Assembly: GCA_039186805.1 (NCBI GenBank)
Contig: JBCCZW010000001.1
Span: forward strand, 1 to 36,595
Reading direction: 5' to 3'
Origin: Verrucomicrobiota bacterium
GTDB lineage: Bacteria; Verrucomicrobiota; Verrucomicrobiia; Opitutales; Opitutaceae
DNA length: 36,595 nt
Below, piece after piece: positions 7,765-33,532 of this stretch. Every line of letters starts with the position of its first letter. The stretch's first letter is position 1. The notes under the pieces were generated by a model. That model was given only the letters and a program-made list of their open reading frames with translations. It ran no database searches and had not been told where the DNA came from. The position numbers and the translations under genes are program-made.

Positions 7765-7860
7765 TTTCAAAAGCGACTACCTATATATTCTGCAGCTCTT
7801 ATAGGAGACCCACTATGGGAAACATCCGCAGGTCAAGGGTAGATAAATTGGGTAAAGTAA

Positions 7861-7902: not shown

Positions 7903-7964
7903 CGCCGTAGTTTTTAGCCAACTACGACTTGCTACGTATGAAAATTAATAACGACAAAGCGCTC

Positions 7965-11961: not shown

Positions 11962-13050
11962 ATGACCTCGGAATCTCCCACTACTCAAACTCAACCTGAA
12001 GGTTACTTTACGCTCGAAAAGCGCCAGAACCGATGGTGGCTCATCACCCCCGAAGGAAAGCCCTTCTTCTCGCTCGGTCTCAACCACATAGATCCCGCAA
12101 CGCTCCGCTACCCGGAAAACATCCACCTCTGGCAGGATAAATATCGCGGAAGCAATCTAGTCTGGATCGAAGAATCAGTCGCTCCCAATCTCAAATCCTG
12201 GGGCTTCAACTCAGTCGGCTGGGTCCAAGAAGTCACCGTCCGCCAGTGGCGCCATTCGCGAGCCTTCACCGTCGACGAATACCGGGCGCTCGACATGCCC
12301 TACTGCCACCTGCTCCCCTTCACCGAATCGCACCAATGGGAGAAGCACACCGTCCACTACGACTTCCGCAGCGATGAATGGAAAGAATGGGTCGACTACG
12401 TCGTCCGCTCTCACTGCGCCGAACTCGCAGACGATCCCAACCTAATCGGATACTTCTACAGCGACTGCCCCGCCTGGATACACGACCTCAGCCAAAACAA
12501 GTGGAGAGGCCCTATCTTCGATCCCAAGATGTTGGATACGGAAGCTGGCCGCAAAGAGCTCTCTGAACTCGCCCACGGCTACTATAAGACCATCCACGAC
12601 GCCATTCGTCGCTACGACAAGCATCATCTCCTTCTCGGCGACCGCTACGAGAACAACATGCCTATCGCTGACGAAGTGGTAAGCGCAGCCCTGCCCTTCA
12701 TCGACGTTCTGTCCTTCCAGGACTTCAATAAGCCCGTTGAACGGCTCGCCAGCTGGTATCAGAAAACCGGCAAGCCCGTTCTTCTCGCCGACTCCGCTCG
12801 CGTCAAATGGCAAACCAAACCCGGCGAATTCACGCCCAACGACGGTGATTGGTACGCGGAAACGCTTGCCGGACTCTTCGATAATCCTGGCTGCGTTGGC
12901 TTTCATCTCTGCGGCGCCTACCAACGCAACAAAGCTCGCCGTTACGGTCTCTTAGACGAGCTGGAAAACCCCGACTCAGAACACGTCGATAAAATGACGG
13001 CCGCCAACCAACGGGTCACTAAAACGATCCAAGCCCTACCCTCCGGGTAG
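11962..13050 (+). CDS. P1: leaderless member of an unassigned TIM-barrel glycosidase-like family (WWL[VI]TPEG family)
   Basis: 362 aa, ATG start with in-frame stops upstream. By eye about four-fifths identical to P2 but without its Tat leader. Blocks WWLITPEGKPFFSLGLNH, SWGFNSVGW, DDPNLIGYFYSDCP, HHLLLGDRY, IDVLSFQDF, GKPVLLADS and GFHLCGAY. Confidence 0.85.
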   Translation: MTSESPTTQTQPEGYFTLEKRQNRWWLITPEGKPFFSLGLNHIDPATLRYPENIHLWQDKYRGSNLVWIEESVAPNLKSWGFNSVGWVQEVTVRQWRHSRAFTVDEYRALDMPYCHLLPFTESHQWEKHTVHYDFRSDEWKEWVDYVVRSHCAELADDPNLIGYFYSDCPAWIHDLSQNKWRGPIFDPKMLDTEAGRKELSELAHGYYKTIHDAIRRYDKHHLLLGDRYENNMPIADEVVSAALPFIDVLSFQDFNKPVERLASWYQKTGKPVLLADSARVKWQTKPGEFTPNDGDWYAETLAGLFDNPGCVGFHLCGAYQRNKARRYGLLDELENPDSEHVDKMTAANQRVTKTIQALPSG

Positions 13051-13162
13051 CCGCCTTTATCATCCTCGTCGCGGCAATCAAAAGCTCCCCGCAATTCGAT
13101 AAAATCCAACTAATTCTAAAATTCTCGTTAGATAAAACCCGCTGGGTCTATTAACCATTTAG

Positions 13163-13714
13163 ATGACTACCCCGGAAAACGATGAGCCGTCGCCCAATAA
13201 CGGCGATCTGGCGATGGAGATCACCTCCATTCAACCACGTCTATACGGTTTCATACTCAAGCGACTGGCCGATCGAGAGTACACGCTCGAAGTCCTCCAG
13301 CGCACCAATTTAGTCCTCTGCCGCAAAGCGAACGAATTTCAAAAAGGTTCCAGCTTCACCGCTTGGGCTTTCACGATCGCCAAGTTTCAAATCATGGCCT
13401 GGCGAAAGGATGAAGGCCGCAACCGGCTTGTTTTCACCGAAGACGTCTACGCCCTCCTCGATCGTTCTTCAGCAGATGAAGCAGACTCGGTCGATCGACG
13501 CATCCCCGTCCTCAAAGGCTGCCTCAATCGCCTGCGTCAGGACGAGAGAGAACTCATCCAGCAACGCTACCGCGATGGATTGAGCATAGAAGCGCTCGCC
13601 GGCAATCTCCAGTATTCCATCGACGCCATCGGTATGCGGCTCCTTCGCATCCGCAAAAAGCTCGGGACCTGCATCAGACTCAATCTGAATACGGAGGGTC
13701 AACATGAGCGCTGA
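13163..13714 (+). CDS. ECF-type sigma-70 family RNA polymerase sigma factor
   Basis: 183 aa. Region-2-like LYGFILKRLADREYTLEVLQRTNLVL...FTAWAFTIAKFQIMAWRK and region-4-like ERELIQQRYRDGLSIEALAGNLQYSIDAIGMRLLRIRKKL. Its stop overlaps the start of the next gene by 11 nt. Confidence 0.85.
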   Translation: MTTPENDEPSPNNGDLAMEITSIQPRLYGFILKRLADREYTLEVLQRTNLVLCRKANEFQKGSSFTAWAFTIAKFQIMAWRKDEGRNRLVFTEDVYALLDRSSADEADSVDRRIPVLKGCLNRLRQDERELIQQRYRDGLSIEALAGNLQYSIDAIGMRLLRIRKKLGTCIRLNLNTEGQHER

Positions 13715-15173
13715 TCCCGATACGCTTGAGGAGCTCGAGCATCTTGTATCCAAAATGTTGGAGCAAACGCTTTCGCAAAAAGAGAAAGCGCGACTCAACG
13801 AACTCCTTCTCGATTCAAAAGCCGCTCGCGCGCTCTACCACGAGATCCTCGACAATCACGAAGCCCTTTGCTCCATCTACCCCGGCGAGGTCTTCAACTC
13901 AGCGCTGGAAACTGAAAACGAGATCATAAGACCTGAACCCCCGAGGGTGACAGCCCCTCTGGCGAGGTTCCCCTCTCTGCCTATGATCGCCAGCGCGGCC
14001 GCGATCGCAATCGCTTTCATAACGGCCTTCGCTTTTCTCAATCCAAAGGAAGACGCGCAAAACACCGCCAGCAACAGTAACCAATCTTCGGATACGGTCG
14101 CCCGTCTCATCGCCAGCGTCGATGCGGTCTGGCAAGACGCTGCCCCCGCCCCCGGTTCCAGCCTCCCACCTGGGAGCTATTCGCTCGAGCAGGGATCGGC
14201 CGATCTTAAATTCGACGAGGGAGCCCGCATCACCCTCCGCGGACCGGCTCGCTTCAACCTGAAAAGCGCCAATCACCTGCACCTGCTATCCGGGAAAATG
14301 GTCGCCTATATTCCCGAAGATGCCCTCGGCTTCGCGGTGACCACGCCGCAAAGCGAGATCGTCGACCTGGGAACGGAATTCGGACTGGATGTCGTCGCAG
14401 ACGGGCGGACCGACATACACGTTATGGATGGTCTCGTTGAGGTGTATAGCCGTAATGCTTCTTCCGATACGGAAAAAATCCTTCAGACTGGCATCAAGAT
14501 AGAAGAAGGGCAAGCGCGTCGCCTCGAGAGCGCAGACGCCTTGCGCCTACAAGACATTCCCTTCTTCACCAGAGAGCAAATCCTGGGAAACCGCCGCTTC
14601 GAAAATCTGGGACTCAGCTTGCTTCGGGGAAGCGTCAAAGTGCGAAACGATTTCGCCACCCAAGACATATACGAAACGATTTCAGAGCAAAGTCGAATCG
14701 AGGTCATCCCCGAGAGTGAAGGAGTGCTGCTAGAACAAGACGCGGTCGTCACCTTCACTGAACCGGGGAAATACCGATTCTTCGGTCCCACAGGTAAGAC
14801 CATCCCAGCCGGTACTAAGGTAGACAGCTTCCTCCTCCACTTCCGCTCGGATGAAATGAAGATCATTCGCGGCGTCATCAAATTCGACCGTCCCATTCTA
14901 GGCTTGATCTGCGAGTCAGATCAACTCGCCGCAACCGACGCGCTCGTCGGCCTAGCCAGCGTCGATTACCCCAGCGCATCCTACTCCTTCCGTAGCCTAG
15001 AACCCCATAACTACAAGCAGGTAAGTAACCTCCCAGCCTACGATACAGGAGGTGGATTGTCCGCGGATGAAGTCACCCTTTCCCAAGATATGACCACCCT
15101 AGGTCTTCACGTAAACGTCATCCCAAACGAAGGCATGGACCAACTCAGAGTCCTCGTCCTCAGCAAAGACTAA
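13704..15173 (+). CDS. FecR-family transmembrane anti-sigma factor with an extended periplasmic C-terminal region
   Basis: Translationally coupled to the sigma gene. Single TM segment (FPSLPMIASAAAIAIAFITAFAFL, aa ~92-115). FecR-like block DLKFDEGARITLRGPARFNL...GKMVAYIPEDALGFAVTTPQSEIVDLGTEFGLDV...HVMDGLVEVY. About 200 further residues belong to no family I recognise. Confidence 0.8.
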   Translation: MSADPDTLEELEHLVSKMLEQTLSQKEKARLNELLLDSKAARALYHEILDNHEALCSIYPGEVFNSALETENEIIRPEPPRVTAPLARFPSLPMIASAAAIAIAFITAFAFLNPKEDAQNTASNSNQSSDTVARLIASVDAVWQDAAPAPGSSLPPGSYSLEQGSADLKFDEGARITLRGPARFNLKSANHLHLLSGKMVAYIPEDALGFAVTTPQSEIVDLGTEFGLDVVADGRTDIHVMDGLVEVYSRNASSDTEKILQTGIKIEEGQARRLESADALRLQDIPFFTREQILGNRRFENLGLSLLRGSVKVRNDFATQDIYETISEQSRIEVIPESEGVLLEQDAVVTFTEPGKYRFFGPTGKTIPAGTKVDSFLLHFRSDEMKIIRGVIKFDRPILGLICESDQLAATDALVGLASVDYPSASYSFRSLEPHNYKQVSNLPAYDTGGGLSADEVTLSQDMTTLGLHVNVIPNEGMDQLRVLVLSKD

Positions 15174-15195
15174 GCATTTTAACCCCTTCAAAAAC

Positions 15196-16362
15196 ATGAA
15201 TCCAGTAAATCGAAGACACTTCATCAAAGGTAGCCTGGCTGCCGGGGCCGGGGCCGCTCTCACTCCGCTATCCCACCTCGCCGCCGCAAATACACAGAAA
15301 ACCACTCAGTCGTCTCCCACCGGCTTCTTCACCTTAGACAATCGGAAGGACCACTGGTGGCTCATCACGCCAGAAGGAAAACCCTTCTTTACCTTAGGCA
15401 TCAACCATATCGACCCTGCCAGCCTTCGGTATCCAGAAAACATACACATCTGGAAAAACAAGTACGGCGGCAGCGCGATCCAATGGATCGAAGAATCGGT
15501 CGCTCCCAACCTCAAATCCTGGGGTTTCAACACGGTAGGCTGGGTCCAAGAAGTCACCGTTCCTCGGTGGCAACACTCCCGTCCTTTCACTGTCGACGAA
15601 TACCGGGCTCTCGACATGCCCTACTGCCACCTCATCCCTTTTACCGAATCGCACCAATGGGAAAAGCACACGGTTCATTACGACTTCCGCAGCAAAGACT
15701 GGGAAGAATGGGTCGACTACACAACCCGGTCGCATTGCGGCGAACTCAGCGAAGATCCTAACCTCATAGGCTACTTCTACAGCGACTGCCCGACCTGGGC
15801 CCACGATCGGCCCTTCAATCAGTGGAAAGGACCTATGTTCGATCCAGAGCGACTGAAGTCCGAAGCCGGTCGCAAAGAACTCAGAGAACTCGCTCACGCT
15901 TATTATAAAACTACCCACGACGCGATCCGACGCTACGACAAGCATCACCTTATCCTCGGCGACCGCTATGAAGCCAACGCTCCCATTCCAATGGAAGTCG
16001 TGGAACCCGCGCTCCCCTACATCGACGTCCTTTCTTTCCAAGACTTTCGCGATCCCATCAAGCACCTTGATGAATGGTACAAGAAGACCGGCAAGCCTGT
16101 CCTCCTCGCAGACGCCGCGGGAATCGGCGGTAAAATGGTCGACGGGTTCAAGCCCAACAACGGCCCCTGGTATTCAGATACCTTGCGCGCTCTCCACAAA
16201 AACCCGGGCTGCATCGGCTTCCACCTCTGCGGCGCCTATCAACGCAATAAAGCCCGCAGACGCGGACTCCTCGACGAACTCGAAAATCCCGACACCGAAC
16301 ACGTCGATATCATGACTCAAGCCAACCAAGACATCACCGCTTGGATGGCCAAGGAATTCTGA
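15196..16362 (+). CDS. P2: Tat-leader member of the unassigned glycosidase-like family
   Basis: 388 aa. Twin-arginine leader MNPVNRRHFIKGSLAAGAGAALTPLSHLAAA. The mature part is collinear with P1. It starts 22 nt after the anti-sigma stop. Confidence 0.85.
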   Translation: MNPVNRRHFIKGSLAAGAGAALTPLSHLAAANTQKTTQSSPTGFFTLDNRKDHWWLITPEGKPFFTLGINHIDPASLRYPENIHIWKNKYGGSAIQWIEESVAPNLKSWGFNTVGWVQEVTVPRWQHSRPFTVDEYRALDMPYCHLIPFTESHQWEKHTVHYDFRSKDWEEWVDYTTRSHCGELSEDPNLIGYFYSDCPTWAHDRPFNQWKGPMFDPERLKSEAGRKELRELAHAYYKTTHDAIRRYDKHHLILGDRYEANAPIPMEVVEPALPYIDVLSFQDFRDPIKHLDEWYKKTGKPVLLADAAGIGGKMVDGFKPNNGPWYSDTLRALHKNPGCIGFHLCGAYQRNKARRRGLLDELENPDTEHVDIMTQANQDITAWMAKEF

Positions 16363-16468
16363 TCGAACATAGCCTTACGCGGTCGCTGAACGCGTCTGTG
16401 AAGCTCACAAGAAACCTCCCCGTATTCCCTTTCTCGATACAGTTCAACGGAGCCTTGCCCTCCCCTCA

Positions 16469-19072
16469 TTGGCGGGACCGCTCGTCCTTTTCGGAAACGC
16501 AGAACCTTTGCCAACCGCGATCCCCGAATTTATCGAACAACACTGCATCGACTGCCATGACGACGTAGAGATGAAGGGCAACCTCGACCTTGATGCCCTG
16601 CTGTTCGAGCCACTTACTCCCGAAAACAGAGCAAGCTGGATAAATGTTTTCGATGCCGCGCAGTCTGACGAAATGCCCCCGGCCAAGAAGAAACGTCCTG
16701 ACAGCGAACACCTGCAGACTTTTTTGAATTCTCTTTCGGGTAGCATCAAAGCCTCTGAACACGAACGCCTGGAAACAAATGGTCGGGCTAGCAATAGACG
16801 CTTAAACCGCTATGAATTTGAAAATTCATTACGCGACCTACTCTCTCTGCCCAATCTAGAAATCAGAGATAACTTGCCTGAAGATGGTACCGCCCATGGA
16901 TTCAACAAACTCAATAAGGCCCTAGACATTTCGCATGTGCAAATGGCCCGCTTTATGGAATCCGCCGAGCAGGCACTTAATCAGGCTGTCATACCATCGG
17001 TCAAAGCGCCGCAAACGTTCAAAGAGAAGTACTATACCTGGCAACAACCAGGCTTCATCAAAATCGCGCCCCCAACGCTTCGATTGACTTTCCCCATTGT
17101 CGGCCTGGAGCTGCAACCTGACCTTATCGGCGGTCGCGACAGAGTCGCGGAACAGTGGATCATCCCAGATTTACCGGGCGCGTCAAAACCCGAGCGGGTC
17201 GAAGACGAAGCCGTGGTGATGCTTACGAGCACTTACGAGCCATCGGAAATACAATTCAACAAATTCCGAGCGGAAGTATCAGGACGTTATATATTACGTT
17301 TCTCCGGCTATACGGTTTGGATGAACAACGATTTTTCCGAGGTATCCAAGGGCCGTCGCAATGAACCAATAGCAATCTATGCCGACTCGCCCCCACGTAT
17401 ATTACGACCTTTGGGGAAATTCGACTTTGAACCCGACGCCACCGTACACAGTCTCGATGTTTGGCTAAAAGCGGGAGAAACGATTCGCCCCGACGCCACC
17501 CGATTGGTAAGGCCCAGAGGGACCTCCAAAAACCCGCTTCAAGAAGCCGACGGCATGCCAGGCGTCGCCTTCCAATGGATGGAAGTGGAAGGCCCGATTT
17601 TCGACCAATGGCCTACCGCGGGTCACAAACTGCTTTTTGCCGATTTACCGCTCACGGAGACCATCGATGATACCGTCGTCGAAGTGATCGAAAAAGCCGA
17701 TCCCGGCGACCCTGCCAACGACGCCGGTCAAGTCTTGCCCGAGCACCTAAACCGGAAGAAGAATATCATATCAGTATCCTCTCCAACTCCCCAAAAAGAT
17801 GCCGAGGCATTGCTGCGTCGCTTTATGGAAAGGGCCTACCGCAGACCGGTACAAGAGAGCGAAGTGCAGCCAATCCTTCAATTAGTAAAAGGCGCTTTAA
17901 AGAACAACCACAGCTTCAAAGCGGCTATGATTTCAGGCTATGTGGCCACTCTTGTCTCGCCGGGTTACCTCTATATAAAGCCTAATAGGGGAGAACTTGA
18001 TAGTCACTCCCTCGCAGAACGGCTTTCATTTTTCCTCTGGAATTCACCGCCCGACGCGCAGCTGCTCAAGCTCGCCTCCTCCGGCGACTTATTGGACCAC
18101 CAGACGTTGAATCAACAAGTAGATCGTTTGCTCGACGATCCTCGCTCGCGGCGATTTAGCGATAGCTTTCTCGACTACTGGCTGGACCTGCGTCATATGA
18201 ATGCATCGACTCCAGATGAAGAATTGTACCCCGATTATCAGCTCAATGATAACTTAATAGAATTAGCGCAAACGGAAACCCAACTGTACTTCTATCATCT
18301 GATCGAGAACAATCTCTCCGCCAAGAATCTGGTCGACTCCGATTTCCTTATAATTAATGAGCGCCTAGCTAAGCACTACGATATTCCCAATGTATCAGGG
18401 GTCCATTTTCGTAAGGTCCCATTGCCCGAAAACAATGCGCGAGGAGGACTCATGACCCAGGCCAGCGTTCTAAAAGTCACTGCTAACGGAACGCTCACCT
18501 CGCCTATATTAAGAGGAGCCTGGATCATGGAACGCATGCTGGGCTATCACGCGGCGCCCCCTCCTGTCGTTGAGGTCCCTGACCCTGATATTCGCGGCGC
18601 CACGACGATCAGAGAACAACTGGCCTTACACCGATCAGATACATCCTGTAACTCCTGTCACCAAAAGATCGATCCGGTCGGGTTCGCCTTAGAGAACTTC
18701 GACGTCATGGGAGCCTGGCGAGACTTCTACCGCAACACGGCAGATGGCGAGGGTCCGAAAGCCAAGGGAATCGGACATAACGGCAAACCCTTCCTCTTCC
18801 GCAAGGGCTTGCCGGTGGACGCTACAGGGAAATTATATAGAGGAGATTCCTTCTCAGATGTTCGCGACTTAAAAAAGATGCTCACCGAGAGGGACACGCA
18901 ACTCGCTGAGAATATCACCGAGCAACTATTGACCTACGCCACCGGCGCTCCCGTCCATTTCTCCGATCGCCAGAGCATAGCGAAAATATTACAGCGAAGC
19001 CGCGCGTCTGACTACGGACTCCGCGACCTCATCAAACATATCGTTAGTAGCGACTTATTCCTCAATAGATAA
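16469..19072 (+). CDS. DUF1592/DUF1588/DUF1585-family protein with two CxxCH heme-c motifs (cassette A); no recognisable signal peptide
   Basis: 867 aa. CIDCH at 16544-16558 and CNSCH at 18647-18661. Family blocks [72 protein letters not shown] and [16 protein letters not shown]. The only in-frame start after the upstream stop is TTG at 16469. Confidence 0.8.
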
Positions 19073-19089
19073 AGACAGAGATTCTATAT

Positions 19090-20403
19090 ATGAAAAATTT
19101 TAACCTCAGATCAAAGAAGTCTCTATCGCGAAGAACCGTCCTAAAAGGACTCGGGGTCAGTATGGCGCTACCTCTCCTCGACGCCATGACTCCAGCGTTT
19201 GCCAAAGGGAAAGACGTAACCAAGAAGCCGCGACGCATGCTCGCTATCTGCAACAATTTGGGAGTGCTTCCACAGCATTTCTTCCCAGAAAATGCAGGGC
19301 CTGACTATAAGCTATCTCCTTACCTACAACAGCTATCCGCCCATAAAAACGACTTCACCGTGTTTAGCGGCGTCTCGCACCTCGGTGTAGATGGGGGGCA
19401 CCCAGCGGACAACTGTTTTTTGACAGCGGCTCCTCACCCTGGTTCTGGAAGCTTTAGGAATACCATATCCTTAGATCAGTTCATGGCTGAGAACATAGGA
19501 CACCACACGCGTATTCCTTCCTTAACTCTGGGCGTCAATGTCTACCAAGGTATTCGCGGCCTATCCTGGACCGCAGGCGGCGTTTTGATTCCCAGCGAGG
19601 AAAAAGCATCCCGAGTCTTCAGCCAGATGTTTCTAGAAGGCTCAGCCAAGGAAAAGCAAAACCAGGTACGCAAAATCGAGTTGGGACAAAGTATCCTCGA
19701 TACGGTTACAGGAATGGCCAAGAGCCTAGAAAGCGACTTGGGGGCGAGCGACAAGGAAAGCCTCGACCAGTACTTTACCAGCGTGCGCGACCTCGAAAAA
19801 CGCATGGCCGCGTCCAAAGAATGGGAATACAAAGAAAAGCCAAAGGTCTCCACGCCACCGCTGGTCGACTTCGAAGACACGCGGCTCTACATGGACAAGA
19901 CCAGACTCATGTACCAACTCTCAAGCCTGGCGATCCAGACGGATTCTACACGCGTGATCAGCCTGATGTTGGATAGTCTGAACTCCCCCGCCATCGAATT
20001 CGATGGTCAAGCGATCAGCGATGGCTACCACAGCCTCTCCCATCACGGCAAATCGGAAGCCAAGCTGGAGCAGCTTAAGCGGATTGATCTTTGTCATATG
20101 AAATTGCTGAATGGGCTCCTGTCCGACTTGAAAGATTTCAAAGAAGGCGGGCAGCCTTTGCTGGATAGCTCCATGGTTCTGTATGGTTCTAATCTGGGAG
20201 ATGCCCAAACCCACAAGAATACGAATCTACCAATAATCTTTGCGGGCGGCGGGTTCGAGCACGGCCAACACCTTGTCTTCGATACCGAACGCAACTACCC
20301 GCTCCCCAACCTCTACGTATCCATGCTCGAAAGAATGGGTATCGAAACCGACAAATTCGCCTCCTCCACCGGAACCATGCGAGGCCTCGAAATGGCCGGA
20401 TAA
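19090..20403 (+). CDS. DUF1552-family protein with a twin-arginine leader (cassette A)
   Basis: 437 aa. Leader [26 protein letters not shown] and the block [13 protein letters not shown]. It starts 17 nt after the upstream CxxCH gene. Confidence 0.8.
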
Positions 20404-20477
20404 CGCCTGCCCAATGCACCCATTATCGTCTATCGATATGCAAATTATAGAATCCCTAAGATAACAAAGATTCATCT

Positions 20478-21809
20478 ATGAATTCGATAACAAGGACCTC
20501 ACTTACCCGCAGGTTTCTCCTTATAGGGAGCATACTTGCGCTCTCGATTAACGTCGCATACTCTTCGGGCAGCGGCAATAGCCAGAAATCATCTGAAGCC
20601 TGGCGACTAAAAGCGAACAAGCGAATTGATGAAATCCGCAAAAGCAACCTGTCGATCAAAGTCACCGACAAAGTGGGGAAGCCAGTCAAAGACGCGAAAG
20701 TACACGTAAAGCTGGATCGTCATAAGTTTCTCTGGGGAGCAGTAATCAATGAAGTGTGGCCTGTATCTCCTCACTTGGATACATACAAGGAAACCTTCCT
20801 ACGCTATTTCAACGCTTCCGGGTTCCGCCTCGCCCTAAAGCCGAAATGGGTCGGCCACGCCAACGAACAAAGGGCTGAGCAAATGTGGCCATGGTTCATG
20901 GAAAACGATATCTACATGCGAGGGCACCTCCTCGTTTGGGACGATCCCAAGTGGTGGCCCGGAGACATGAGAGAGGTATATAATAACAATTCCCTTCCCG
21001 ACAAAGTGAAAGGGGAGCAGCTATTGCGGATGGCTGAACGACACATCCACTACGCCTTGCCGAAGTGGGACGTCGAATGCTGGGACGTGATGAACGAGCC
21101 GCTGTCCAATTTCGCCATTCACAACCTCGTCGAAGGCCACAGCTTCACCCACTGGTTCAAACTCGCTGATGAAGTTCGCAAAAAGCATGGTCGGGAGGAC
21201 GTCAAGCTCTACATCAATGAGTTCCAAGTTCTGTCCGCGATACTGAAGCATGCCCAAAATCGACCTGCCAGATACAGAGCGATAATCGATCAGATGCTTT
21301 CCGAAGGAGCGCCGATCGAAGGCATTGGCTTCCAAGCCCGCATCCACTCCGGCTACCTGTCGCCAGAAACTGTATACGATCGCCTGCAAAACTTTGAGCG
21401 CTACGACCTCCCGCTGCATATTACCGAATTCGAGGTTCGCAACAAACCCGCCAAAACCTATACCGACGAAGAAAAGGTGCAAATCGTCAACGAGATGATG
21501 ACCATCTACTTCAGTCACCCGTCGGTCGAAGGCATGTGGCACTGGACCTTTTCGGACCTGCCGAACGGCAGAGAGCCTTTCGCTCTTTTCCAATACGATG
21601 GCACCCCCTTCCCTTGCGGAGTGGAATGGATGCGCACGATGGACGAAGAATTTAATACGGACCTGATCGCGACCACGAAATCCAACGGCAAAACGACTGC
21701 TCGCGGCTTCAAGGGCGAATACACGATCACTGCTTCCTACGGTTCAAAAACCAAGAGCATTTCAGCCACCCTAGATGAAGACGCCCAATTGACTATCGCA
21801 TTCGATTAA
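20478..21809 (+). CDS. GH10-like glycoside hydrolase (xylanase fold), secreted
   Basis: Signal-like N-terminus. The full ordered set of GH10 hallmark blocks is present: MRGHLLVW, WDVMNEP (acid/base Glu codon 21096-21098), LYINEF, GIGFQARIH, LHITEFEV (nucleophile Glu codon 21426-21428). Confidence 0.8.
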   Translation: MNSITRTSLTRRFLLIGSILALSINVAYSSGSGNSQKSSEAWRLKANKRIDEIRKSNLSIKVTDKVGKPVKDAKVHVKLDRHKFLWGAVINEVWPVSPHLDTYKETFLRYFNASGFRLALKPKWVGHANEQRAEQMWPWFMENDIYMRGHLLVWDDPKWWPGDMREVYNNNSLPDKVKGEQLLRMAERHIHYALPKWDVECWDVMNEPLSNFAIHNLVEGHSFTHWFKLADEVRKKHGREDVKLYINEFQVLSAILKHAQNRPARYRAIIDQMLSEGAPIEGIGFQARIHSGYLSPETVYDRLQNFERYDLPLHITEFEVRNKPAKTYTDEEKVQIVNEMMTIYFSHPSVEGMWHWTFSDLPNGREPFALFQYDGTPFPCGVEWMRTMDEEFNTDLIATTKSNGKTTARGFKGEYTITASYGSKTKSISATLDEDAQLTIAFD

Positions 21810-21857
21810 GATCGAGAATAAATGCTCCTACTCCCACCAGTTCAATGCTACCGTTGC

Positions 21858-22019
21858 CTCTCCCTCTTCGCCAGGTCTACTGGCTCGGCCCTCGATACGG
21901 ATTCCCTGCGGACTGAGCTTCCAAGCCTCTACGTATCCATACAGCCAAGACCCGTCGCAGAAGTCGACAAATTCGCAATCCCGACAGGAACCACGCGCAG
22001 CCTAGAAACGGCCAACTGA
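21858..22019 (+). pseudogene. relic of the 3' end of a DUF1552 gene (about the last 50 codons only)
   Basis: The translation LSLFARSTGSALDTDSLRTELPSLYVSIQPRPVAEVDKFAIPTGTTRSLETAN* aligns with the cassette A C-terminus [56 protein letters not shown], including the position of the stop. Shared nucleotide strings include CCTCTACGTATCCAT and GACAAATTCGC. The N-terminal ~85% of the gene is missing. Confidence 0.7.
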
Positions 22020-22045
22020 AAACCAAGCAACTTCAATTTCCAAAC

Positions 22046-22095
22046 TGTAGACGCGGTCGTTGACCGCGTATTCTAATCGACGATCGCGTCTACAA
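22046..22095. repeat. REP-like palindromic intergenic element, copy 2 (nested inverted repeats)
   Basis: TGTAGACGCG (22046-22055) is the exact reverse complement of CGCGTCTACA (22085-22094). There is an inner hairpin ACGCGGTC-GTT-GACCGCGT (22051-22069). It shares the 14-mer GATCGCGTCTACAA with 7751-7764. Confidence 0.5.
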
Positions 22096-22189
22096 GCAAA
22101 TTTCCAATTTAACTCGTCAGAGGTTCTCCAAGCGGAACCCAGCATCAGCATACGACCCTCTTTTGTCTGCCATAGGGTCGAATCTCAGT

Positions 22190-24439: not shown

Positions 24440-24535
24440 CGCAATGGAAACGTTCCCGAAGAATCGAAGAAATGCAGTAGCGAGGACCGCTTCGGTCCCT
24501 CATCTAATTTCGTATCCGCTTATCAGATACATCAA

Positions 24536-26053: not shown

Positions 26054-26361
26054 ATACGATTAAGCCCGGTGAACGCCCCCTTTCAATTGAGGGTGCTCAG
26101 GGGCTCTCCAGAGCTTCCCTTTTTGGACAATTCCAATCTCTCAACCCGGCGCATCAGACAGAAGGCTTTGTGAGAGCAATCTTACCATCGTTCCCACCTA
26201 GTACCCATCATCAAGAAATGCGGCCTTAGTAAAAAGAACCAACTATGTCCAAAGATCCCTCCAGATTAGCATGATCATGTCATGGCACAGTTTCGCCCCT
26301 TGCAATATTGCATACAGACATCCGGTCCCGGCCCGTAGATCGCCGGAGATAGATTCCAAAC

Positions 26362-28113
26362 ATGTTTAAGCCCTTTTTCCACCGATTACTCTTCCTCGCA
26401 TTGCTAGGCAGCGCAGCCGCAATCGCCTCGCAGGGTCCAAATGTCATCCTCATCCTGACCGATGATCAAGGCTACGGCGATATTCGTTCACACGGTAACG
26501 ATAAAATAGATACGCCTCATCTCGATCGTCTCGCCGACGACGGGGCCCGCTTCGAGAATTTCTTCGTCTCCCCCGTCTGCGCCCCTACGCGCGCTAGCGT
26601 CCTCACCGGTCGCGAGCACATTCGTACCGGGACCGTAAACGTATCCAACAACTACGAGATCATGAGATCCGAAGAGGTGACCGTCGCTGAACTCTTTAAA
26701 GCAAACGGCTACGCTACCTCCCTCTTCGGCAAATGGCACAACGGCGAACACTACCCTTACAATCCAAACGGCCAAGGATTTGACGAATTCATCGGCTTCT
26801 GCGCCGGCCACGTCGGCAACTACTTCGATGCCGTCCTCGAGCACAATGCCGGCACGATTCAGACCGAGGGTTTCATTACCGACGCGCTCACCGATAAAGC
26901 GCTCGATTGGATCGAAGACAAAAAGGACGAGCCCTTCTTCTGCTACATACCCTACAACGCGCCTCACACGCCCTACCAAGTTCCCGACTCTTACTACGAT
27001 AAATACAAAGCCCGCGGACTCGACGTCAAAACCGCCACTCTCTACGGCATGGTCGAAAACATCGACGACAACATCGGCCGCCTTGTGAAGCGACTCGAAG
27101 AACTCGAACTCTCCGAAAACACCATCATCCTCTTCCTGACCGACAACGGCCCGCAAACCCGCGACCGCTACAACGCGGGAATGAAAGGCTGGAAAACTCG
27201 CGTCGATGAAGGCGGCGTTCGCGTCCCCCTCTTCGTTAAATGGCCCGGCCAAATCAAGCCGCGCACCATCATCGACGGCCTCGCCGCGCACATCGACCTA
27301 ATGCCTACTCTCGCCGATCTTTGCGGTATTGAAATTCCAGATACGCTCAAACTCGATGGACTCAGCCTCAAAGACTCCCTCCTCAAAGGAGAAACCGCCC
27401 CCGACGATCGCATGATCTTCGCTCACCGCTTTTTCGGCGGAAAACTACAGCGGCGCAGCGGAACCGCTCGCAGCAAACGCTACCGCTACGTCTACACCCA
27501 CCAAGAGGAAACCCTCTTCGACCTCATCAACGATCCAGGACAGAAGAAAGACATCAGCAAAGCGAATCCCGAGCAATTCGAACGCCACCAAGTCGCCTAT
27601 CGCCAATGGTTCGAGGACGTATCCGATAACTGGGAAATCGTATCCCTCATCCCTTGCGGCTACCCCGAGTTCCCCATTACTCACCTTCATGCCGTCCAAT
27701 CGAAACTCAGCGGGGCCATCAAATTCCACGGCCGAGGCTTCCACCACGACTGGATCGTCAATTGGGTCGACCCCAAGGACGACATCAAATGGGACATCGA
27801 CGTGGTCGAGTCCGGGCGCTTCCGCGTCGCTATAAGATATACTTGCCCCGAAAAAGATATCGGCTCGCAGGTTCGTATCTCCGTCGGAGGAAAGTCACTA
27901 CAAGCGACTGTCGACAAAGCCTTCGATCCCGACCTCTTTCCCAACCTCGACCGAGCCCCTCGCTCTGGCGAAATCGAAAAGCCTTGGGCGACTCTAGAGC
28001 TAGGCTACCTGAACCTAAAAAAAGGCGTAGACACCTTCACGCTGTCTGCCGACCGCATGCCTGGCTCCCAAATCATGGATGTCCGCGAAGTCATCTTAGA
28101 AAGGATCGAATGA
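26362..28113 (+). CDS. S1-family (Cys-type, formylglycine-dependent) sulfatase with a C-terminal ~140-aa extension
   Basis: Signal peptide, LILTDDQGYGD metal-site block, and FGly motif CAPTRAS (Cys codon 26578-26580). The region after aa ~440 lies outside the sulfatase core. Confidence 0.9.
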   Translation: MFKPFFHRLLFLALLGSAAAIASQGPNVILILTDDQGYGDIRSHGNDKIDTPHLDRLADDGARFENFFVSPVCAPTRASVLTGREHIRTGTVNVSNNYEIMRSEEVTVAELFKANGYATSLFGKWHNGEHYPYNPNGQGFDEFIGFCAGHVGNYFDAVLEHNAGTIQTEGFITDALTDKALDWIEDKKDEPFFCYIPYNAPHTPYQVPDSYYDKYKARGLDVKTATLYGMVENIDDNIGRLVKRLEELELSENTIILFLTDNGPQTRDRYNAGMKGWKTRVDEGGVRVPLFVKWPGQIKPRTIIDGLAAHIDLMPTLADLCGIEIPDTLKLDGLSLKDSLLKGETAPDDRMIFAHRFFGGKLQRRSGTARSKRYRYVYTHQEETLFDLINDPGQKKDISKANPEQFERHQVAYRQWFEDVSDNWEIVSLIPCGYPEFPITHLHAVQSKLSGAIKFHGRGFHHDWIVNWVDPKDDIKWDIDVVESGRFRVAIRYTCPEKDIGSQVRISVGGKSLQATVDKAFDPDLFPNLDRAPRSGEIEKPWATLELGYLNLKKGVDTFTLSADRMPGSQIMDVREVILERIE

Positions 28114-28217
28114 GCGCCGATTTCCATAATAGGACGCAAGGCCCTCGGTCCGTAGAACTTCGCCAAGCCCCGCGGAAGCGATGTTCCGCTTCAACTCCCT
28201 CGTTCGCCTAATTTATT

Positions 28218-30590
28218 ATGCGCCCCATTCGAAATACAGGATTCGGAATGCTGCTTTTGTCGGCTGCCCTGCTGACCTCAGCAGAGGTCGATATCACCGC
28301 GCCGCCTGAGCATTTGAACGCCTTTCTGGAACGGCATTGCCTAGATTGCCACGACGACACCGAAAGCAAAGCCGATCTCAACCTCTGGGATTTGGAATTC
28401 AATCTGAAAGACCCGAATACCTTCGCCACCTGGCAGCGCGTCTACGAGCGTATCAGCAATGGCGAAATGCCGCCCGCCAAAAAACGTCGTCCCGGGGCCG
28501 ACGAACTGGCCGAGCTTCTCCCGGCCCTCAAGAAACCCCTATTGACCGCGGACCGGAAAGACGCTCAAGAAAACGGCCGCGTGCGCAGCCGTCGCCTGAC
28601 CCGGCGAGAATACGAACACACCCTGCATGACCTCCTCGGCATCGATCTACCGCTGCAGGAACTCTTGCCCGAAGATCCCGCCTCCCATGGCTTCGAAACC
28701 GTCTCCGCCGGCCAACAACTATCCTACCATTTACTGGCGCGATATCTGGACCTTGCCGACCTTGCCTTAGCCGAAGCATTCGATCGCGCTCTCAATGGGG
28801 ACGCCAAATACGTCGAAAGCTTTTCGCCCAATCAGTTGTCGGAGGGAATTGGGAGACGCAACTACCGAGGCCCCGAACCTCGAAAAGGCGAGAGTATTTC
28901 CTGGCCCATTTATAGAATGCAATTCTACGGACGGATGCGCGGTTTCCGAGCGCCGGAAGACGGCTGGTACCGCATCACGCTTCGCGATGCGCGAGCAGTC
29001 AACCCAGCCACAGGGGGAACCGTATGGGGAACCTTGCAAACGGGCGCCGGGGTCTCTGCCGAACCGATACTCTACGATGCGGGTATCGTGGAAGCGATCA
29101 AGACTCCGCGAGACCTGCACTACAAAGCATGGATTCGGGAAGGACATAGATTGTTATTGAAGCCGAATGATCGGACCCTCCGCAGAGCTCCCAATCAGAA
29201 CCGGCGGCCCGACACGGCTCAATACGATGAGCCAAATGAAAAGAACGGTTTTTCAGGAATTGCCCATCGCGGTATCCGCGTCGAACGCATCTACCCCAAC
29301 GGCGACCGCGATGCCGCACGGAAAAACCTGTTCGGAGATACAAGGCTCAAGACTGCCAGAAAAAACCCGACCGCAGCGCTCGACCAACTCATGACGCGTT
29401 TCGCCCTCAGGGCCTTCCGGCGACCCTCCACCGAAGCGCAACTGGCGCCCTACAAGAAGATCGCTCAGGCCGCCCTCGCCGAAGGCGATTCCTTCGAGGA
29501 AGCGCTGCGCGCCGGCTACCGGGCCATCCTCTGCTCCCCGCGATTCCTCACTTTCATCGAAAAACCCGGTCAACTGGATAACTACGCTCTGGCCTCCCGG
29601 CTCAGCTACGCCTTATGGGTGAGCATGCCGGACGAGACGCTTATGCAAGCGGCGAACGAAGGCAGCCTGCGCGATCCCGAGACTCTAGACGCTCAAATCA
29701 ACCGCATGCTATCCAACCCGAAATTCGAGCGCTTCATCAACAGCTACAGCGACCAATGGCTCAATATGAAGGAGATCGGCTTCACCACCCCCGACCGCCG
29801 CCAATTCCCCACCTTCGACCCAGTGGTTCAGGATTCCATGCTCCAAGAGACCCGCGCCTTCCTTCGCGAGATGATCCAGTCGGACCACGGCGCCGCCAAT
29901 ATCGTCGATTCCGATTTCGCCTTCTGGAACGAGCGCCTTGCGCGACACTACGAAGCGAACGCGAAATTCAAGCCCGGCCAAGGCCTGCAAAAGGTAGCGC
30001 TCAAAAAGAAAAGCGTTCACGGCGGACTGTTGACGCAGGGAGCTATTCTAAAGGTAACCGCCGACGGCTCAGCCACTTCTCCCATCGTGCGAGGCGTTTT
30101 CGTCAATGAGCGCATCTTGGGTAAACACTTAGCGCCACCGCCGCCAGATATCCCAGCAATTGAACCCGACATCCGTGGCGCTGTTTCCATTCGCGACCAG
30201 TTGGAAAAGCACCGCGCCAACGAGTCTTGCTACTCCTGCCACAAGACGATCGACCCGCCCGGACTGGCCCTCGAGAACTTCGATCCCGTCGGCATGTGGC
30301 GCACTCACTACGGTCGCGGTCGCGGCGCAGCCGTCGACCCAACCGGCGCCACGCCCGAAGGCGACCGCTTCGCCGACATTCTCGCCTTGAAGAAAATCTA
30401 CGCGCAGCGCGACGACCAACTGGCTCGCGCCTTCACCGAGCACTTTCTCACCTACGCGACCGGCGCTCCCATACGCTTCAGCGATCACGCGGAAGTCGAG
30501 AAGATCGTCGCCGCTTCAATCAGCTCCGACTACGGTTTGCAGACCCTGATGAAGGCCTCCCTGGCCAGCTCTATTTTCCAACAAAAGTAA
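28218..30590 (+). CDS. DUF1592/DUF1588/DUF1585-family protein with two CxxCH motifs (cassette B), with a signal peptide
   Basis: 790 aa. N-terminal MRPIRNTGFGMLLLSAALLTSAEV. CLDCH at 28338-28352 and CYSCH at 30228-30242. The blocks are collinear with cassette A (RRLTRREYEHTLHDLL, FALRAFRRPST, LASRLSYALWVSMPD, DSDFAFWNERLARHY, TSPIVRGVFVNERILG). Confidence 0.85.
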   Translation: MRPIRNTGFGMLLLSAALLTSAEVDITAPPEHLNAFLERHCLDCHDDTESKADLNLWDLEFNLKDPNTFATWQRVYERISNGEMPPAKKRRPGADELAELLPALKKPLLTADRKDAQENGRVRSRRLTRREYEHTLHDLLGIDLPLQELLPEDPASHGFETVSAGQQLSYHLLARYLDLADLALAEAFDRALNGDAKYVESFSPNQLSEGIGRRNYRGPEPRKGESISWPIYRMQFYGRMRGFRAPEDGWYRITLRDARAVNPATGGTVWGTLQTGAGVSAEPILYDAGIVEAIKTPRDLHYKAWIREGHRLLLKPNDRTLRRAPNQNRRPDTAQYDEPNEKNGFSGIAHRGIRVERIYPNGDRDAARKNLFGDTRLKTARKNPTAALDQLMTRFALRAFRRPSTEAQLAPYKKIAQAALAEGDSFEEALRAGYRAILCSPRFLTFIEKPGQLDNYALASRLSYALWVSMPDETLMQAANEGSLRDPETLDAQINRMLSNPKFERFINSYSDQWLNMKEIGFTTPDRRQFPTFDPVVQDSMLQETRAFLREMIQSDHGAANIVDSDFAFWNERLARHYEANAKFKPGQGLQKVALKKKSVHGGLLTQGAILKVTADGSATSPIVRGVFVNERILGKHLAPPPPDIPAIEPDIRGAVSIRDQLEKHRANESCYSCHKTIDPPGLALENFDPVGMWRTHYGRGRGAAVDPTGATPEGDRFADILALKKIYAQRDDQLARAFTEHFLTYATGAPIRFSDHAEVEKIVAASISSDYGLQTLMKASLASSIFQQK

Positions 30591-30613
30591 TCAACCACAG
30601 GACACCCAATTCC

Positions 30614-31885
30614 ATGAAAAACATAAATCTCAATTTGGGCGCTAAAATTTCCCGGAGAACCATGCTCCGCGCCGGCGGCATTTCATTGGCCCTTCCCTTA
30701 CTCGATGCCATGACTCCCGCATTCGCGAAGATGCAAAAGGCGACGCATGCCAAACGCTTCGTCGGCGTCAACCTAACCCTCGGTCTTCACTATCCAAACC
30801 TCGTCCCCGAGACGGCTGGAAAGAATTACCAACCCTCGCGCTACCTCAAATCGCTGCAAGACATCCGGAACGACTTCACGGTGGTTTCCGGAACGTCCCA
30901 TCCCGGCGTCGGCGGAGGGCACTCCGCCGAAGGCAGCATCTTTTCCGCCTGCCCGAACCAAGGCGGCTCGGCGGCGCGCAATACCATCTCCTTGGACCAG
31001 CTCATGGCCAAAAGCCTCGGTCACGAGACGCGCTTCCCCTCCCTGGTACTCAACACCTCCGGTCAAACCAGCCCCTCCTACACCGAGAACGGGGCGATGA
31101 TCCCGGCTGAGAACAAGGCCATGCGGCTCTTCACGAAGCTCTTTGTCGATGACTCGCCCGCTGAACAAGAACGGCAAGCCGAGCTGATCCGCCGCGGACG
31201 CAGCGTCATGGACACCATCGGCGCAGACGCCAAAAGCTTGCAGAGCGAACTGGGAGCCGGCGACCGCGACAAGCTAGACGCTTGGTTCACCAGCGTTCGC
31301 GAATTGGAGGGCCACCTGGTCGCCAACGAGCAATGGACACGACGCCCTAAGCCAAAGGTGTCGCTCCAACCGCCGGTAAACGTGCCGCGAAACAACGAGG
31401 TCGTCGTCGAGAAGATCTTTCTCGATATCGTGCACATGGCCTTGGCCACTGACTCTACTCGCTTCGTCAGCCTCCACACCTCGGGCAACGGCGTATCCGG
31501 CATCCAGGGTGTCGATGACGGCTACCACAACCTCAGTCACCACGGCCTCGACGAGGGAAAACTCCGCCAACTTGGCCTCGTCGAGCAAGGCATGATCGAT
31601 GTTTGGGGAGGCTTCTTGCGAAAGCTGAAGCAGGATCAATTGCTGGACGAGACCATGGTCCTGATGACCTCCAACCTCGGCAACGCCTCTGCGCACTCCA
31701 ACAACAACCTGCCCGTACTCTTTGCCGGAGGCGGCTTCCGACACGGACAACACCTCGCTTTCGACCAAGAGAGCAACTATCCTCTGCCCAACCTTTACCT
31801 AAGCGCGATACGTCGACTGGGACTGGACGTCGACCGTTTCGCCACCTCTTCCACCGAAATGCGCGGCTTGGAAGTCAACGCGTAA
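30614..31885 (+). CDS. DUF1552-family protein with a twin-arginine leader (cassette B)
   Basis: ATG at 30614 gives [38 protein letters not shown]. The ORF-track start at 30227 overlaps the upstream gene in another frame and encodes an Arg-rich non-protein-like extension. DGYHNLSHHGLDE block. The start is 23 nt after the upstream stop. Confidence 0.85.
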   Translation: MKNINLNLGAKISRRTMLRAGGISLALPLLDAMTPAFAKMQKATHAKRFVGVNLTLGLHYPNLVPETAGKNYQPSRYLKSLQDIRNDFTVVSGTSHPGVGGGHSAEGSIFSACPNQGGSAARNTISLDQLMAKSLGHETRFPSLVLNTSGQTSPSYTENGAMIPAENKAMRLFTKLFVDDSPAEQERQAELIRRGRSVMDTIGADAKSLQSELGAGDRDKLDAWFTSVRELEGHLVANEQWTRRPKPKVSLQPPVNVPRNNEVVVEKIFLDIVHMALATDSTRFVSLHTSGNGVSGIQGVDDGYHNLSHHGLDEGKLRQLGLVEQGMIDVWGGFLRKLKQDQLLDETMVLMTSNLGNASAHSNNNLPVLFAGGGFRHGQHLAFDQESNYPLPNLYLSAIRRLGLDVDRFATSSTEMRGLEVNA

Positions 31886-31925
31886 CTAACGAAAAACTGA
31901 AGCGAGCCATCCAAAGAAACTACAA

Positions 31926-33485
31926 ATGAAAACACTTCTAAACGCCCTTCCAAAATTTTTGGGCCGGGACAGTCTACCCTCCGTAGCTTCATGCGAAGGA
32001 CGGGCCGACCCGGCAAGCGAGGTGGGTCATCGCCGCGCCCTACAGCCGTTTGCGACCAAGGCCCTTCTCGCGTTGGCCATCGCCATATCCACAAATTCCA
32101 GCGTGCTATCGAACGAAACGATCGGCCACAAGGATTTCGTTCACGTAGAAAAGCAGGGCGGCATATGGACCATGGTGAAGGGCGACGGCGAAGCCTTCGT
32201 CCCGCTCGGCATGAATCACGTTGGGCCCATGTCGCGCTTCGCTCCTTACAACCGGGAGCACTGGGCCAAGGAAATCGGAGGAGGCATCCTCAAAAACGGT
32301 CGAGTCGATTTCAAATCCGAGGGCGCCAAAACCTGGCTGGAGATCATCGCCAAGGACCACAAGGACTACGGCTTCAATACCCTAGCCTTTCACCATCCCC
32401 ACACCTTGCCTACGGAATACTGCAACGAGCTGGAGCTGTACTACTTCGCCAAGCTTCGCATGAGCCACGTCCACGCTCGTCGCGCTAAACGGATGTCGGC
32501 GACCAAAATGTTCCCCGACGTATTCGATTCCGCGTGGGTCCAGCGGCTCGACCATTTCGTCGAAAACTTCACCGCCAGGCATCGAGACGGAAAATACCTG
32601 CTCGGCTACAGTTACGACGACCTCCCAGCTTATACAATCCACAATCTAGAGAGACCCATCAGGAAATTCGAGCATCACCCATGGATCGTAGACGTCCTTT
32701 CAAAACCGGGAAAAACCAAGGGCAAAAGCGAATGGATCGAAGTCCTACAAAAGCAATATTCATCCGCAGCGAAAGCCGGTGACATGTATGGCCTCGCAAT
32801 CAAAAGCTGGGACGATTTCTACGACATCAAGAGCTACGGGCTTCCTAAAGACGAAGAGCAAGGCTTCGCCGATCAAGCGCTCATGAACGCGAAGATTATT
32901 CGGGCGTATCACAAGGCTCATCACGACGCTATACGCAAGTACGATCCCCATCATCTCATTTTAGGCGACAAAATTCAAAACGCCCGATCCCAACCGGACT
33001 GGGTATGGAATATCGTCAAGGAGTACGTAGACGTTATCCTAATCCAGGACTACGACTTCTTCACTCCTCTTCATGCAAAGAAACTCCGCCACATCTACGA
33101 GGTGACCGGAAAGCCTATCATAAACGGAGATCACGCCTACGGCGCCATTCGTCCCAACATGGAAAACGTCAAGGGAGTCGTCGTTCCTACGATGAAAGAC
33201 AAAGGGGAACAGTATGCCGTCTACCTCAAAGGCATCATGAGCCTGCCCTTCATGCTTGGCTGGCAAACCTGCGGTTACCTAGAGACATGGACCGGTACCA
33301 GCGACGCTACCGGGAAATCCCAAACCGGCTACTTCGATCCCATGGGACGTCCCATCCTCGAGGCCCTCGAGCCCGCCAGAGAAGCCAACGCCTCAGCGCT
33401 CGCCTGGCGGCGGCAAGCAGGAAAAGAAAAGATAAGCTACTCGACCATGAAACGCGCTCCCTTGCGGACGCAGAAAAAGCGATAA
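31926..33485 (+). CDS. P5: most divergent member of the unassigned glycosidase-like family
   Basis: Blocks GGIWTMVKGDGEAFVPLGMNH, DYGFNTLAFH, LLGYSYDDLP, HHLILGDK, VDVILIQDY, GKPIINGDHA and GWQTCGY. The start is uncertain: ATG 31926 gives a non-signal 32-aa leader, while in-frame GTG 32022 gives a signal-like (M)GHRRALQPFATKALLALAIAIS. Confidence 0.75.
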   Translation: MKTLLNALPKFLGRDSLPSVASCEGRADPASEVGHRRALQPFATKALLALAIAISTNSSVLSNETIGHKDFVHVEKQGGIWTMVKGDGEAFVPLGMNHVGPMSRFAPYNREHWAKEIGGGILKNGRVDFKSEGAKTWLEIIAKDHKDYGFNTLAFHHPHTLPTEYCNELELYYFAKLRMSHVHARRAKRMSATKMFPDVFDSAWVQRLDHFVENFTARHRDGKYLLGYSYDDLPAYTIHNLERPIRKFEHHPWIVDVLSKPGKTKGKSEWIEVLQKQYSSAAKAGDMYGLAIKSWDDFYDIKSYGLPKDEEQGFADQALMNAKIIRAYHKAHHDAIRKYDPHHLILGDKIQNARSQPDWVWNIVKEYVDVILIQDYDFFTPLHAKKLRHIYEVTGKPIINGDHAYGAIRPNMENVKGVVVPTMKDKGEQYAVYLKGIMSLPFMLGWQTCGYLETWTGTSDATGKSQTGYFDPMGRPILEALEPAREANASALAWRRQAGKEKISYSTMKRAPLRTQKKR

Positions 33486-33532
33486 AACGCGCCGCGTCAT
33501 CCCCTTTATTTAACAAACTGATTATTGCATCT

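Follow-up and report, generated by a model that had tools for sequence, protein, structure and literature searches.

The closest described relatives of the proteins considered here are the glycoside hydrolases of CAZy family GH50, whose known activities (β-agarase, β-1,3-glucanase, β-galactosidase, and β-glucuronidase) all come from members of the glutamate type. In Aga50D, Glu534 acts as the acid/base and Glu695 as the nucleophile, and the active site further includes Asn533, Phe742, Arg752, and Glu757 (PMC11079163). A domain at the N-terminus that resembles a carbohydrate-binding module (a CBM-like domain) marks the agarase subfamily, but not all GH50 enzymes. More broadly, clan GH-A (GH2, GH5, GH10, GH42, etc.) is defined by a Glu on each of strands β4 and β7 of a (β/α)8, or triosephosphate isomerase (TIM), barrel. 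A 36,595-nt stretch from a Verrucomicrobiota bacterium (GenBank assembly GCA_039186805.1, contig JBCCZW010000001.1, positions 1 to 36,595), hereafter the window, on which all gene coordinates are numbered unless another locus is named, carries five paralogous genes, P1 to P5. Their products share with clan GH-A the barrel topology and the placement of functional residues, at the C-termini of β4 and β7, whereas they have neither Glu, and the acid/base site is non-ionisable. By sequence comparison, P1-P5 are placed in a large monophyletic sister clade of GH50 within the clan GH-A barrels, with a catalytic signature that is unprecedented for this clan.

The sequence-only reading of the window had proposed five plus-strand open reading frames (ORFs) of a single paralogous family that share ordered motif blocks, A to G, and both proposals were confirmed. 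An ORF check recovered all five genes, and pairwise BLASTP gave 74% identity between P1 and P2 and 20-28% for the remaining pairs, well above what chance would give (E 1e-10 to 5e-33); a regular-expression search found blocks A, B, C, E, F, and G, and an alignment found block D, with block C of P2 reading E-D-P, not D-D-P. P1 (11962-13050, + strand, 362 aa) and P2 (15196-16362, + strand, 388 aa) are short-form GH50-like barrels of what is termed the B type below. P1 has no signal peptide, and an in-frame start farther upstream is impossible; P2 bears a twin-arginine translocation (TAT) signal (PF10518, E 8e-7 in a Pfam scan). P3 extends from 22163 (TTG) or 22190 (ATG) to 24439 on the + strand and consists of a B-type catalytic domain (22163-23602, approximately residues 1-480) followed by a C-terminal PF06439/DUF1080 domain named '3-keto-disaccharide hydrolase' (23612-24427, residues 484-755, E 3.4e-20). 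P4 (24536-26053, + strand, 505 aa) is a variant of the C type, P5 (31926-33485, + strand, 519 aa) is again a B-type barrel, and P3, P4, and P5 have hydrophobic N-termini.

The catalytic parts of P1-P5 matched no Pfam family above its curated cut-off and no NCBIfam model, as had been anticipated; the sole sub-threshold Pfam match was that of P3 to GH42 (PF02449; 18.2 bits against a cut-off of 21), over a helical insert. The accompanying claim that the family could not be placed was overturned. Single-sequence phmmer searches of the PDB retrieved only GH50 enzymes (E 1e-9 to 3e-15), and a P3-like family profile built from 66 sequences covered all five solved GH50 sequences, with E values running from 3.8e-43 for PfGH50B through 4e-40 for Aga50D and 3e-35 for AgWH50C to 6e-21 for BpGH50. 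AlphaFold2 models of P3 residues 1-480 (predicted local distance difference test, pLDDT, 93.2; predicted template-modelling score, pTM, 0.90) and of P2 (pLDDT 82.1, pTM 0.83) are (β/α)8 barrels. In Foldseek searches with both models, GH50 entries (5z6p, 6xj9, 4bq2-5, and 5t3b) filled the top 17 ranks (E 1e-27 to 1e-16; query template-modelling score, TMq, 0.61-0.70), followed by the other GH-A families GH2, GH42, GH158, and GH5; the predicted clan GH-A-type fold was thereby borne out. The solved GH50 enzymes (Aga50D of Saccharophagus degradans, 4BQ2-5; AgWH50C, 5Z6P; PfGH50B, 6XJ9; BpGH50, 5T3B) have in common with the family, besides the barrel, the N-terminal β-hairpin motif G-[FY]-F-x-x-x-x-x-x-x-W-x-L-V-x-P-E-G, the structural residues D170, G199, H316, G320, D345, G421, and D429 (P3 numbering), and a helical insert between β4 and β5 that is present in P3, P4, and P5 and missing from P1 and P2. 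H316 and D345 are probably structural, since GH50 has them too and each is located N-terminally on its strand. Two families of fucanases, GH107 and GH168, which are TIM barrels with Asp residues and come from fucoidan loci, were rejected as relatives, as they were not among the top fold matches and the profile matched GH50 only. BpGH50 was also considered as a solved member of the clade and was rejected because it has the canonical Glu and Phe residues; no structure from the Asp/Cys clade has therefore been solved.

Catalytic residues were mapped from three concordant independent alignments (hmmalign with a five-paralogue profile, and the P3-like profile against 6XJ9, 4BQ2/4, and 5Z6P). The nucleophile Glu695 of Aga50D (β7) corresponds to D377 in P3 and D306 in P2, and Asn533 (β4) to D204 in P3, the block-C Asp, and D197 in P2. 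The acid/base Glu534 (β4) falls on residue 205 of P3, a position held by Cys, Val, Ile, or Leu (C198 in P2). Phe742 (β8) is matched by the invariant C425 of P3, the β6 Asn of GH50 by Q350, and the β5 Gly/Ala/Cys of GH50 by D321, which is followed by Lys or Arg to make a new pair. For Arg752, no conserved G-R motif was found at +9/+10 from the Phe742 position in the Asp/Cys (D/C) clade. Nor is the N-terminal CBM-like domain present, as the alignments begin at approximately residues 238-258 of the GH50 chains and only a signal peptide precedes. All mapped GH50 residues with a catalytic or −1-subsite role (a set that does not include Glu757) are thus replaced together in this family. The earlier proposal of an Asp at both catalytic positions holds in part: the β7 Asp (D377/D306) does occupy the nucleophile site of Glu695, but the block-C Asp sits at Asn533, not at the acid/base Glu534, where Cys, Val, Ile, or Leu is found. 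The stretch from Gly199 to D204 of P3 aligns to GH50 without gaps, so the D-x-P motif is equivalent to the classic N-E-P. One single-sequence phmmer alignment placed a four-residue gap near block C, against which the gapless profile alignments and the extent of β4 in the model (197-204) both argue.

The complete residue sets of the four B-type proteins are H42, D168-C169-P170, D227-R228, Q253, D277, and C317 in P1; H71, D197-C198-P199, D256-R257, Q282, D306, and C345 in P2; H82, D204-I205-P206, D321-K322 (β5), Q350, D377, and C425 in P3; and H98, D232-L233-P234, D348-K349, Q374, D402, and C449 in P5. In the P3 model, with strands assigned by DSSP, D204 ends β4, Q350 ends β6, D377 lies near the end of β7 (373-378), and C425 follows β8, and these four residues are accordingly predicted to line the active site of the barrel.

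Conservation across homologues reinforces this picture. Among 66 P3-like sequences that are 33-70% identical, the invariant positions are W65, W66, N81, H82, H133, D170, D204, K238, H316, G320, D321, K322, D345, Q350, G376, D377, G421, C425, and G426. When residues were read across representatives of 50%-identity clusters, two clean states emerged, D…D…C and N-E…E…F. GH50 proper (state A) has N-E … N … E … F/Y, and the B type has the His equivalent to H82, D-x-P, D-[KR], Gln, Asp, and Cys; in the C type, the D-x-P block is deleted and the His, Gln, Asp, and Cys are kept, with the β5 Asp exchanged for Cys, Ser, Ala, Val, Phe, or Met and followed by Tyr or Phe. The β7 residue is Asp in 5/5 window paralogues and in 86/86 clade members examined, and the Cys425 position is invariant in the same 86 sequences, C-type copies included. 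In a neighbour-joining (NJ) tree of 118 domains (simple and midpoint-rooted, not a rigorous phylogeny), the 86 Asp/Cys sequences all fall in one pure clade, apart from the 32 Glu-type sequences. The β7 Glu-to-Asp and β6 Asn-to-Gln replacements look compensatory, because a methylene is lost from one side chain and gained by the other, and their co-occurrence suggests that the carboxylate-amide contact is kept while the carboxylate retreats. At the level of 50%-identity clusters, the family counts 5291 representatives with a cut-off of E ≤ 1e-3 and 1218 with one of E ≤ 1e-30, the weaker-scoring clusters probably including GH50 proper, and the clade extends over Verrucomicrobiota, Planctomycetota, Bacteroidota, Acidobacteriota, Latescibacterota, and further phyla. 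It was not filed as an ordinary part of GH50, because it shares the fold and the homology but lacks the catalytic residues by which GH50 is defined.

P4 was confirmed to be the variant that had been described, without the block-C Asp: its D-x-P block is deleted and its β5 pair reads C318-Y319, while H75, Q343, D366, and C416 are kept. The existence of a whole P4-like subclade without this Asp refutes the notion that the block-C Asp would be invariant in homologues. In 16 C-type sequences, 19-55% identical to P4, H152, D310, H313, Q343, D366, C416, and D421 are invariant, and the motifs G-Y-Y-Y-G-F-G, L-G-x-[YF]-x-K, and S-D-[QE] are shared. A C-type gene directly adjoins a B-type gene in five of seven loci, an arrangement to which P3-P4 in the window conforms; of the other two, one has a B-type gene 8.5 kb away on the same contig, and in the other no B-type copy was found. 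Natural fusions also occur among the cluster representatives in both orders (P0242, B+C; P0244, C+B). Both the pairing and the fusions point to a functional B/C pair, and P4-type copies most likely act as partners of the adjacent standard-type copy rather than as stand-alone enzymes.

The sulfated-glycan context that had been suggested for the locus is supported by its sulfatase neighbours and by the occurrence of its GH10 subfamily in sulfatase clusters. The window encodes a GH10-like enzyme with canonical NEP and TEF motifs (20478-21809, + strand; nearest solved relative, Bacillus XynA, 7D88) and two S1 sulfatases, one (26362-28113, + strand) nearest to a κ-carrageenan (Gal-4-sulfate) S1_16 sulfatase and the other (33521-35119, + strand) nearest to S1_11-type 6-O-sulfatases among solved structures. 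In a survey of 85 non-redundant loci from at least nine phyla, sulfatases were by far the commonest neighbour family (33/85 loci, 64 genes, approximately 0.05 per kb). Counts of GH10 over these loci were taken from BLAST, an iterative profile having been discarded because it was contaminated by fusions of GH10 with P-family domains. One such P3-like+GH10 fusion, of 995 aa, occurs in Pelagicoccus mobilis (L003, 7012-9999), with a GH10 part 82% identical to that of the window; another, independent one of 1253 aa, which brings the phyla to two, is encoded in a Bacteroidota metagenome-assembled genome (MAG) beside a P5 orthologue (L011, 6127-9888), with Ig-like domains and a type IX secretion system (T9SS) tail. 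Another Bacteroidota polysaccharide utilization locus (PUL) encodes, besides a P3-like protein with a T9SS tag, three GH10s, CBM4_9 proteins, GH3, a sulfatase, a hybrid two-component sensor, and SusC. The syntenic cluster of P. mobilis comprises a sensor kinase and response regulator, a P1-like gene, genes for an extracytoplasmic function (ECF) sigma factor and FecR, a P2-like gene, and the P3-like+GH10 fusion, followed by a further P2-like gene and a P3 orthologue (70%). On the strength of the GH10 fusions, the PUL, and the sulfatase neighbours, a role of P3-P5 in the breakdown of a sulfated glycan, for which a GH10-type enzyme is required as well, is well supported by gene context.

The GH10 subfamily of the window is also found in Flavobacteriia loci (L089, L090) packed with S1 sulfatases and also containing GH3, GH29, and SusC/D; in the second, a member is fused to a sulfatase in an 872-aa protein (L090, 1-1555, - strand). 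In its own right, a GH10 clade devoted to a sulfated glycan is unusual. The proteins without a Pfam match in these two loci are not P-family members, and text matches to 'GH10' in papers on fucoidan proved to be GH107 and similar names.

P2-like genes have a distinct setting. The best database matches of P2 are Opitutaceae MAGs (79-84% identity), and between Planctomycetota and Verrucomicrobiota the identity of P2-like proteins is at least 69%. Between P1 and P2 lie genes for an ECF sigma factor (13163-13714, + strand) and a FecR-like anti-sigma factor (13704-15173, + strand), and the combination of a P1/P2-like gene with ECF sigma and FecR-like genes occurs in three genomes (window 11962-16362; L001, 10001-13490; L003, 2438-6986), the arrangement being conserved between Verrucomicrobiota (including Pelagicoccus) and a planctomycete. 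The P1/P2-type enzyme may thus be either a regulated target of the ECF sigma system or the generator of its signal. Upstream of P1, a LuxR-type response regulator (9155-9805, - strand) and a HisKA_3/HATPase sensor histidine kinase (9819-11882, - strand), whose periplasmic part contains an F5/8 type C (discoidin-like) domain, form a pair that is syntenic in P. mobilis. In a widespread Pirellulales population (L091-L096, gene at 7001-8167), a P2-like gene stands alone between ApbE/Pterin_4a and PhoD genes, separated by long intergenic stretches and without CAZyme genes around it; in L001, too, ApbE and PhoD are nearby. This isolation, taken with the cross-phylum identity, suggests a conserved role of P2-like proteins outside PULs.

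Cleavage of glycosidic bonds in an enlarged −1 pocket, the β7 Asp being the nucleophile or base and a β4/β5 Asp cluster the proton donor, seems the most likely reading of the active site, and about even confidence is placed in it. In this scheme, P1-P5 would remain glycan-cleaving enzymes but not β-agarases; P2-P5 would be exported to the periplasm or cell surface and P1 would be cytoplasmic, and all would act with the particular GH10 subfamily and S1 sulfatases on a sulfated glycan that probably contains xylose and/or galactose. The carboxylate of the β7 Asp, lying approximately one methylene farther back than in GH50, would still be held by the lengthened β6 Gln; with Glu534 lost, the β4/β5 Asp pair, bridged by Lys/Arg, would have taken over as proton donor; and the enlargement of the −1 pocket (Glu to Asp, Phe to Cys, Arg lost) could accommodate a bulkier or differently oriented, possibly sulfated, sugar. 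The GH1 myrosinases offer a partial likeness, as these GH-A barrels have exchanged the acid/base Glu for a non-acidic residue and are still active on a sulfated substrate; nevertheless, they retain the Glu nucleophile, use ascorbate as cofactor, and differ from the P-family in family, residues, and substrates. GH13 (clan GH-H) likewise carries acidic residues on β4, β5, and β7, with Glu on β5, but this similar topology of acids comes without homology and is an analogy only. Several observations weigh against cleavage by a β7 Asp in a sulfated-glycan pathway. We know of no precedent for an Asp nucleophile in clan GH-A, and the loss of the acid/base, with the β4 Asp occupying the site that binds O2, could be a sign of another chemistry. 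The C-type proteins, which strictly keep the Asp, Cys, Gln, and His without the β4/β5 acid, are hard to fit to a two-carboxylate mechanism. The sulfatase enrichment is modest, its density dropping only slightly with distance, and the GH10 link is limited to the closest P3 orthologues (three independent loci and the window). Lastly, P2-like genes often lie outside CAZyme clusters, next to ApbE/PhoD in Pirellulales, and their unusual conservation may reflect a role different from that of P3-P5.

Alternatively, the barrel may have been kept and the chemistry may not be of the classical two-carboxylate (Koshland) type, a possibility that is considered unlikely although far from negligible. Catalysis might then proceed by neighbouring-group participation, with the β4 Asp activating the 2-OH in the manner of GH99 or a 2-acetamido group in that of GH20/GH84, by an elimination (lyase) step on uronic or 3-keto sugars, or through the invariant β8 Cys with His and Asp. 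The exchange of the acid/base Glu for non-ionisable residues and of the O2-binding Asn533 for Asp fits such schemes, as does the persistence of Cys425 in 86/86 D/C sequences, even in C-type copies devoid of β4/β5 acids. The adjacent D-E or D-D pair of GH20/GH84 is absent, however, a single Asp being followed by Cys, Val, Ile, or Leu and then Pro, and to our knowledge no polysaccharide lyase has a TIM-barrel fold. Also in favour of such chemistry, P3 itself bears a DUF1080 domain, and GMC oxidoreductase with its small subunit, ThuA, AP_endonuc_2, and DUF1080 recur near the closest P3/P5 orthologues; yet these genes are rare over the 85 loci (GMC in 2, AP_endonuc_2 in 6, DUF1080 in 6), and the T9SS-secreted GH10 fusions imply action on extracellular polymers. 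It may also be proposed, tentatively and with a probability well short of even, that a new catalytic core of β7 Asp, β8 Cys, and β6 Gln, with or without the β4/β5 Asp-Lys-Asp, has replaced the Glu/Glu pair, that it cleaves sulfated or oxidised glycans by a route without precedent, and that B- and C-type proteins form an obligate heteromer; an Asp nucleophile, Asp-driven neighbouring-group participation at the O2 position, and an elimination or Cys-assisted step are candidate routes for such a core. That the family consists of non-catalytic, glycan-binding or regulatory pseudo-enzymes of GH50 ancestry, serving for instance as non-catalytic subunits or, with the ECF sigma/FecR module, as sensing partners, is improbable overall and less so for P4. 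No member retains the canonical acid/base and the C type has also lost the β4/β5 acids, a C-type copy is usually found with a B-type copy or fused to one, and P1 and P2 flank the ECF sigma/anti-sigma pair in three genomes; nonetheless, a polar active-site set strictly conserved over more than 1000 clusters and the identity of at least 69% among P2-like proteins across phyla are typical of enzymes, and the GH10 fusion and secretion tails resemble those of accessory enzymes. It is very improbable that P1-P5 are ordinary GH50 β-agarases, as many database records have it. NCBI and UniRef label many P2-like members 'agarase', GH50 is closest by sequence and fold, and one window sulfatase resembles red-algal galactan sulfatases, but both catalytic Glu residues and Asn533, Phe742, and Arg752 of the −1 subsite are replaced, the agarase-type N-terminal CBM-like domain is missing, the clade is separate from all Glu-type GH50s in the tree, and members occur in soil Acidobacteriota and in Latescibacterota; the name 'agarase' is thus probably wrong for the clade.

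If active, these proteins would be the first clan GH-A-type barrels to work without either catalytic glutamate, and cleavage with a β7 Asp in place of the Glu nucleophile would, if true, widen the rules by which glycosidase mechanisms are read from sequence. As the clade is invisible to Pfam and NCBIfam and, where databases name it, goes under 'agarase', it is likely to be miscounted or misassigned when marine glycan degradation is surveyed by metagenomics. The fusion with the GH10 subfamily points to an undescribed sulfated-glycan pathway in marine carbon turnover, and the fusion and neighbour data supply concrete gene sets for biochemical work. A literature search found no paper on the Asp/Cys clade, on a characterised member, on 'GH50-like' families, or on a link between ECF sigma factors and agarases; the new CAZy families in bioRxiv 10.64898/2026.05.19.726164 are unrelated to P1-P5.

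In the window, a GMC oxidoreductase and a Gluconate_2-dh3 small subunit are encoded upstream (4156-6340, - strand), and in two loci of Bacteroidota this pair is again found flanking P3-like genes (L005, 1-1229; L012, 2440-6331), one of which also has ThuA and a xylose-isomerase-like barrel. Together with the DUF1080 domain of P3, this pair hints at a link to oxidative 3-keto-glycoside cleavage; as a general link, such a pathway was rejected, since it was seen only in the window, L005, and L012 and is rare over the 85 loci. Two pairs of genes (16469-20403 and 28218-31885), in each of which the gene for a large PSCyt1/PSD2-5 (DUF1592-family) protein precedes one for a DUF1552 protein, alternate with the CAZyme and sulfatase genes. 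DUF1552 homologues occur in 14 of the 85 related loci, and the pairs may represent a glycan-binding or uptake module of the Planctomycetota-Verrucomicrobiota-Chlamydiota (PVC) type. Two mechanical ORF calls (30227-31885 and 33005-35119) begin too far upstream and overrun the preceding genes, P5 in the second case; the true starts likely lie near 30557 for the DUF1552 gene and near 33521 for the sulfatase, which has a signal peptide. Finally, gene orientation flips from mostly the - strand to the + strand at approximately 11.9 kb, despite a GC skew that is negative in all 2-kb windows (-0.02 to -0.25) across positions 1-36595.

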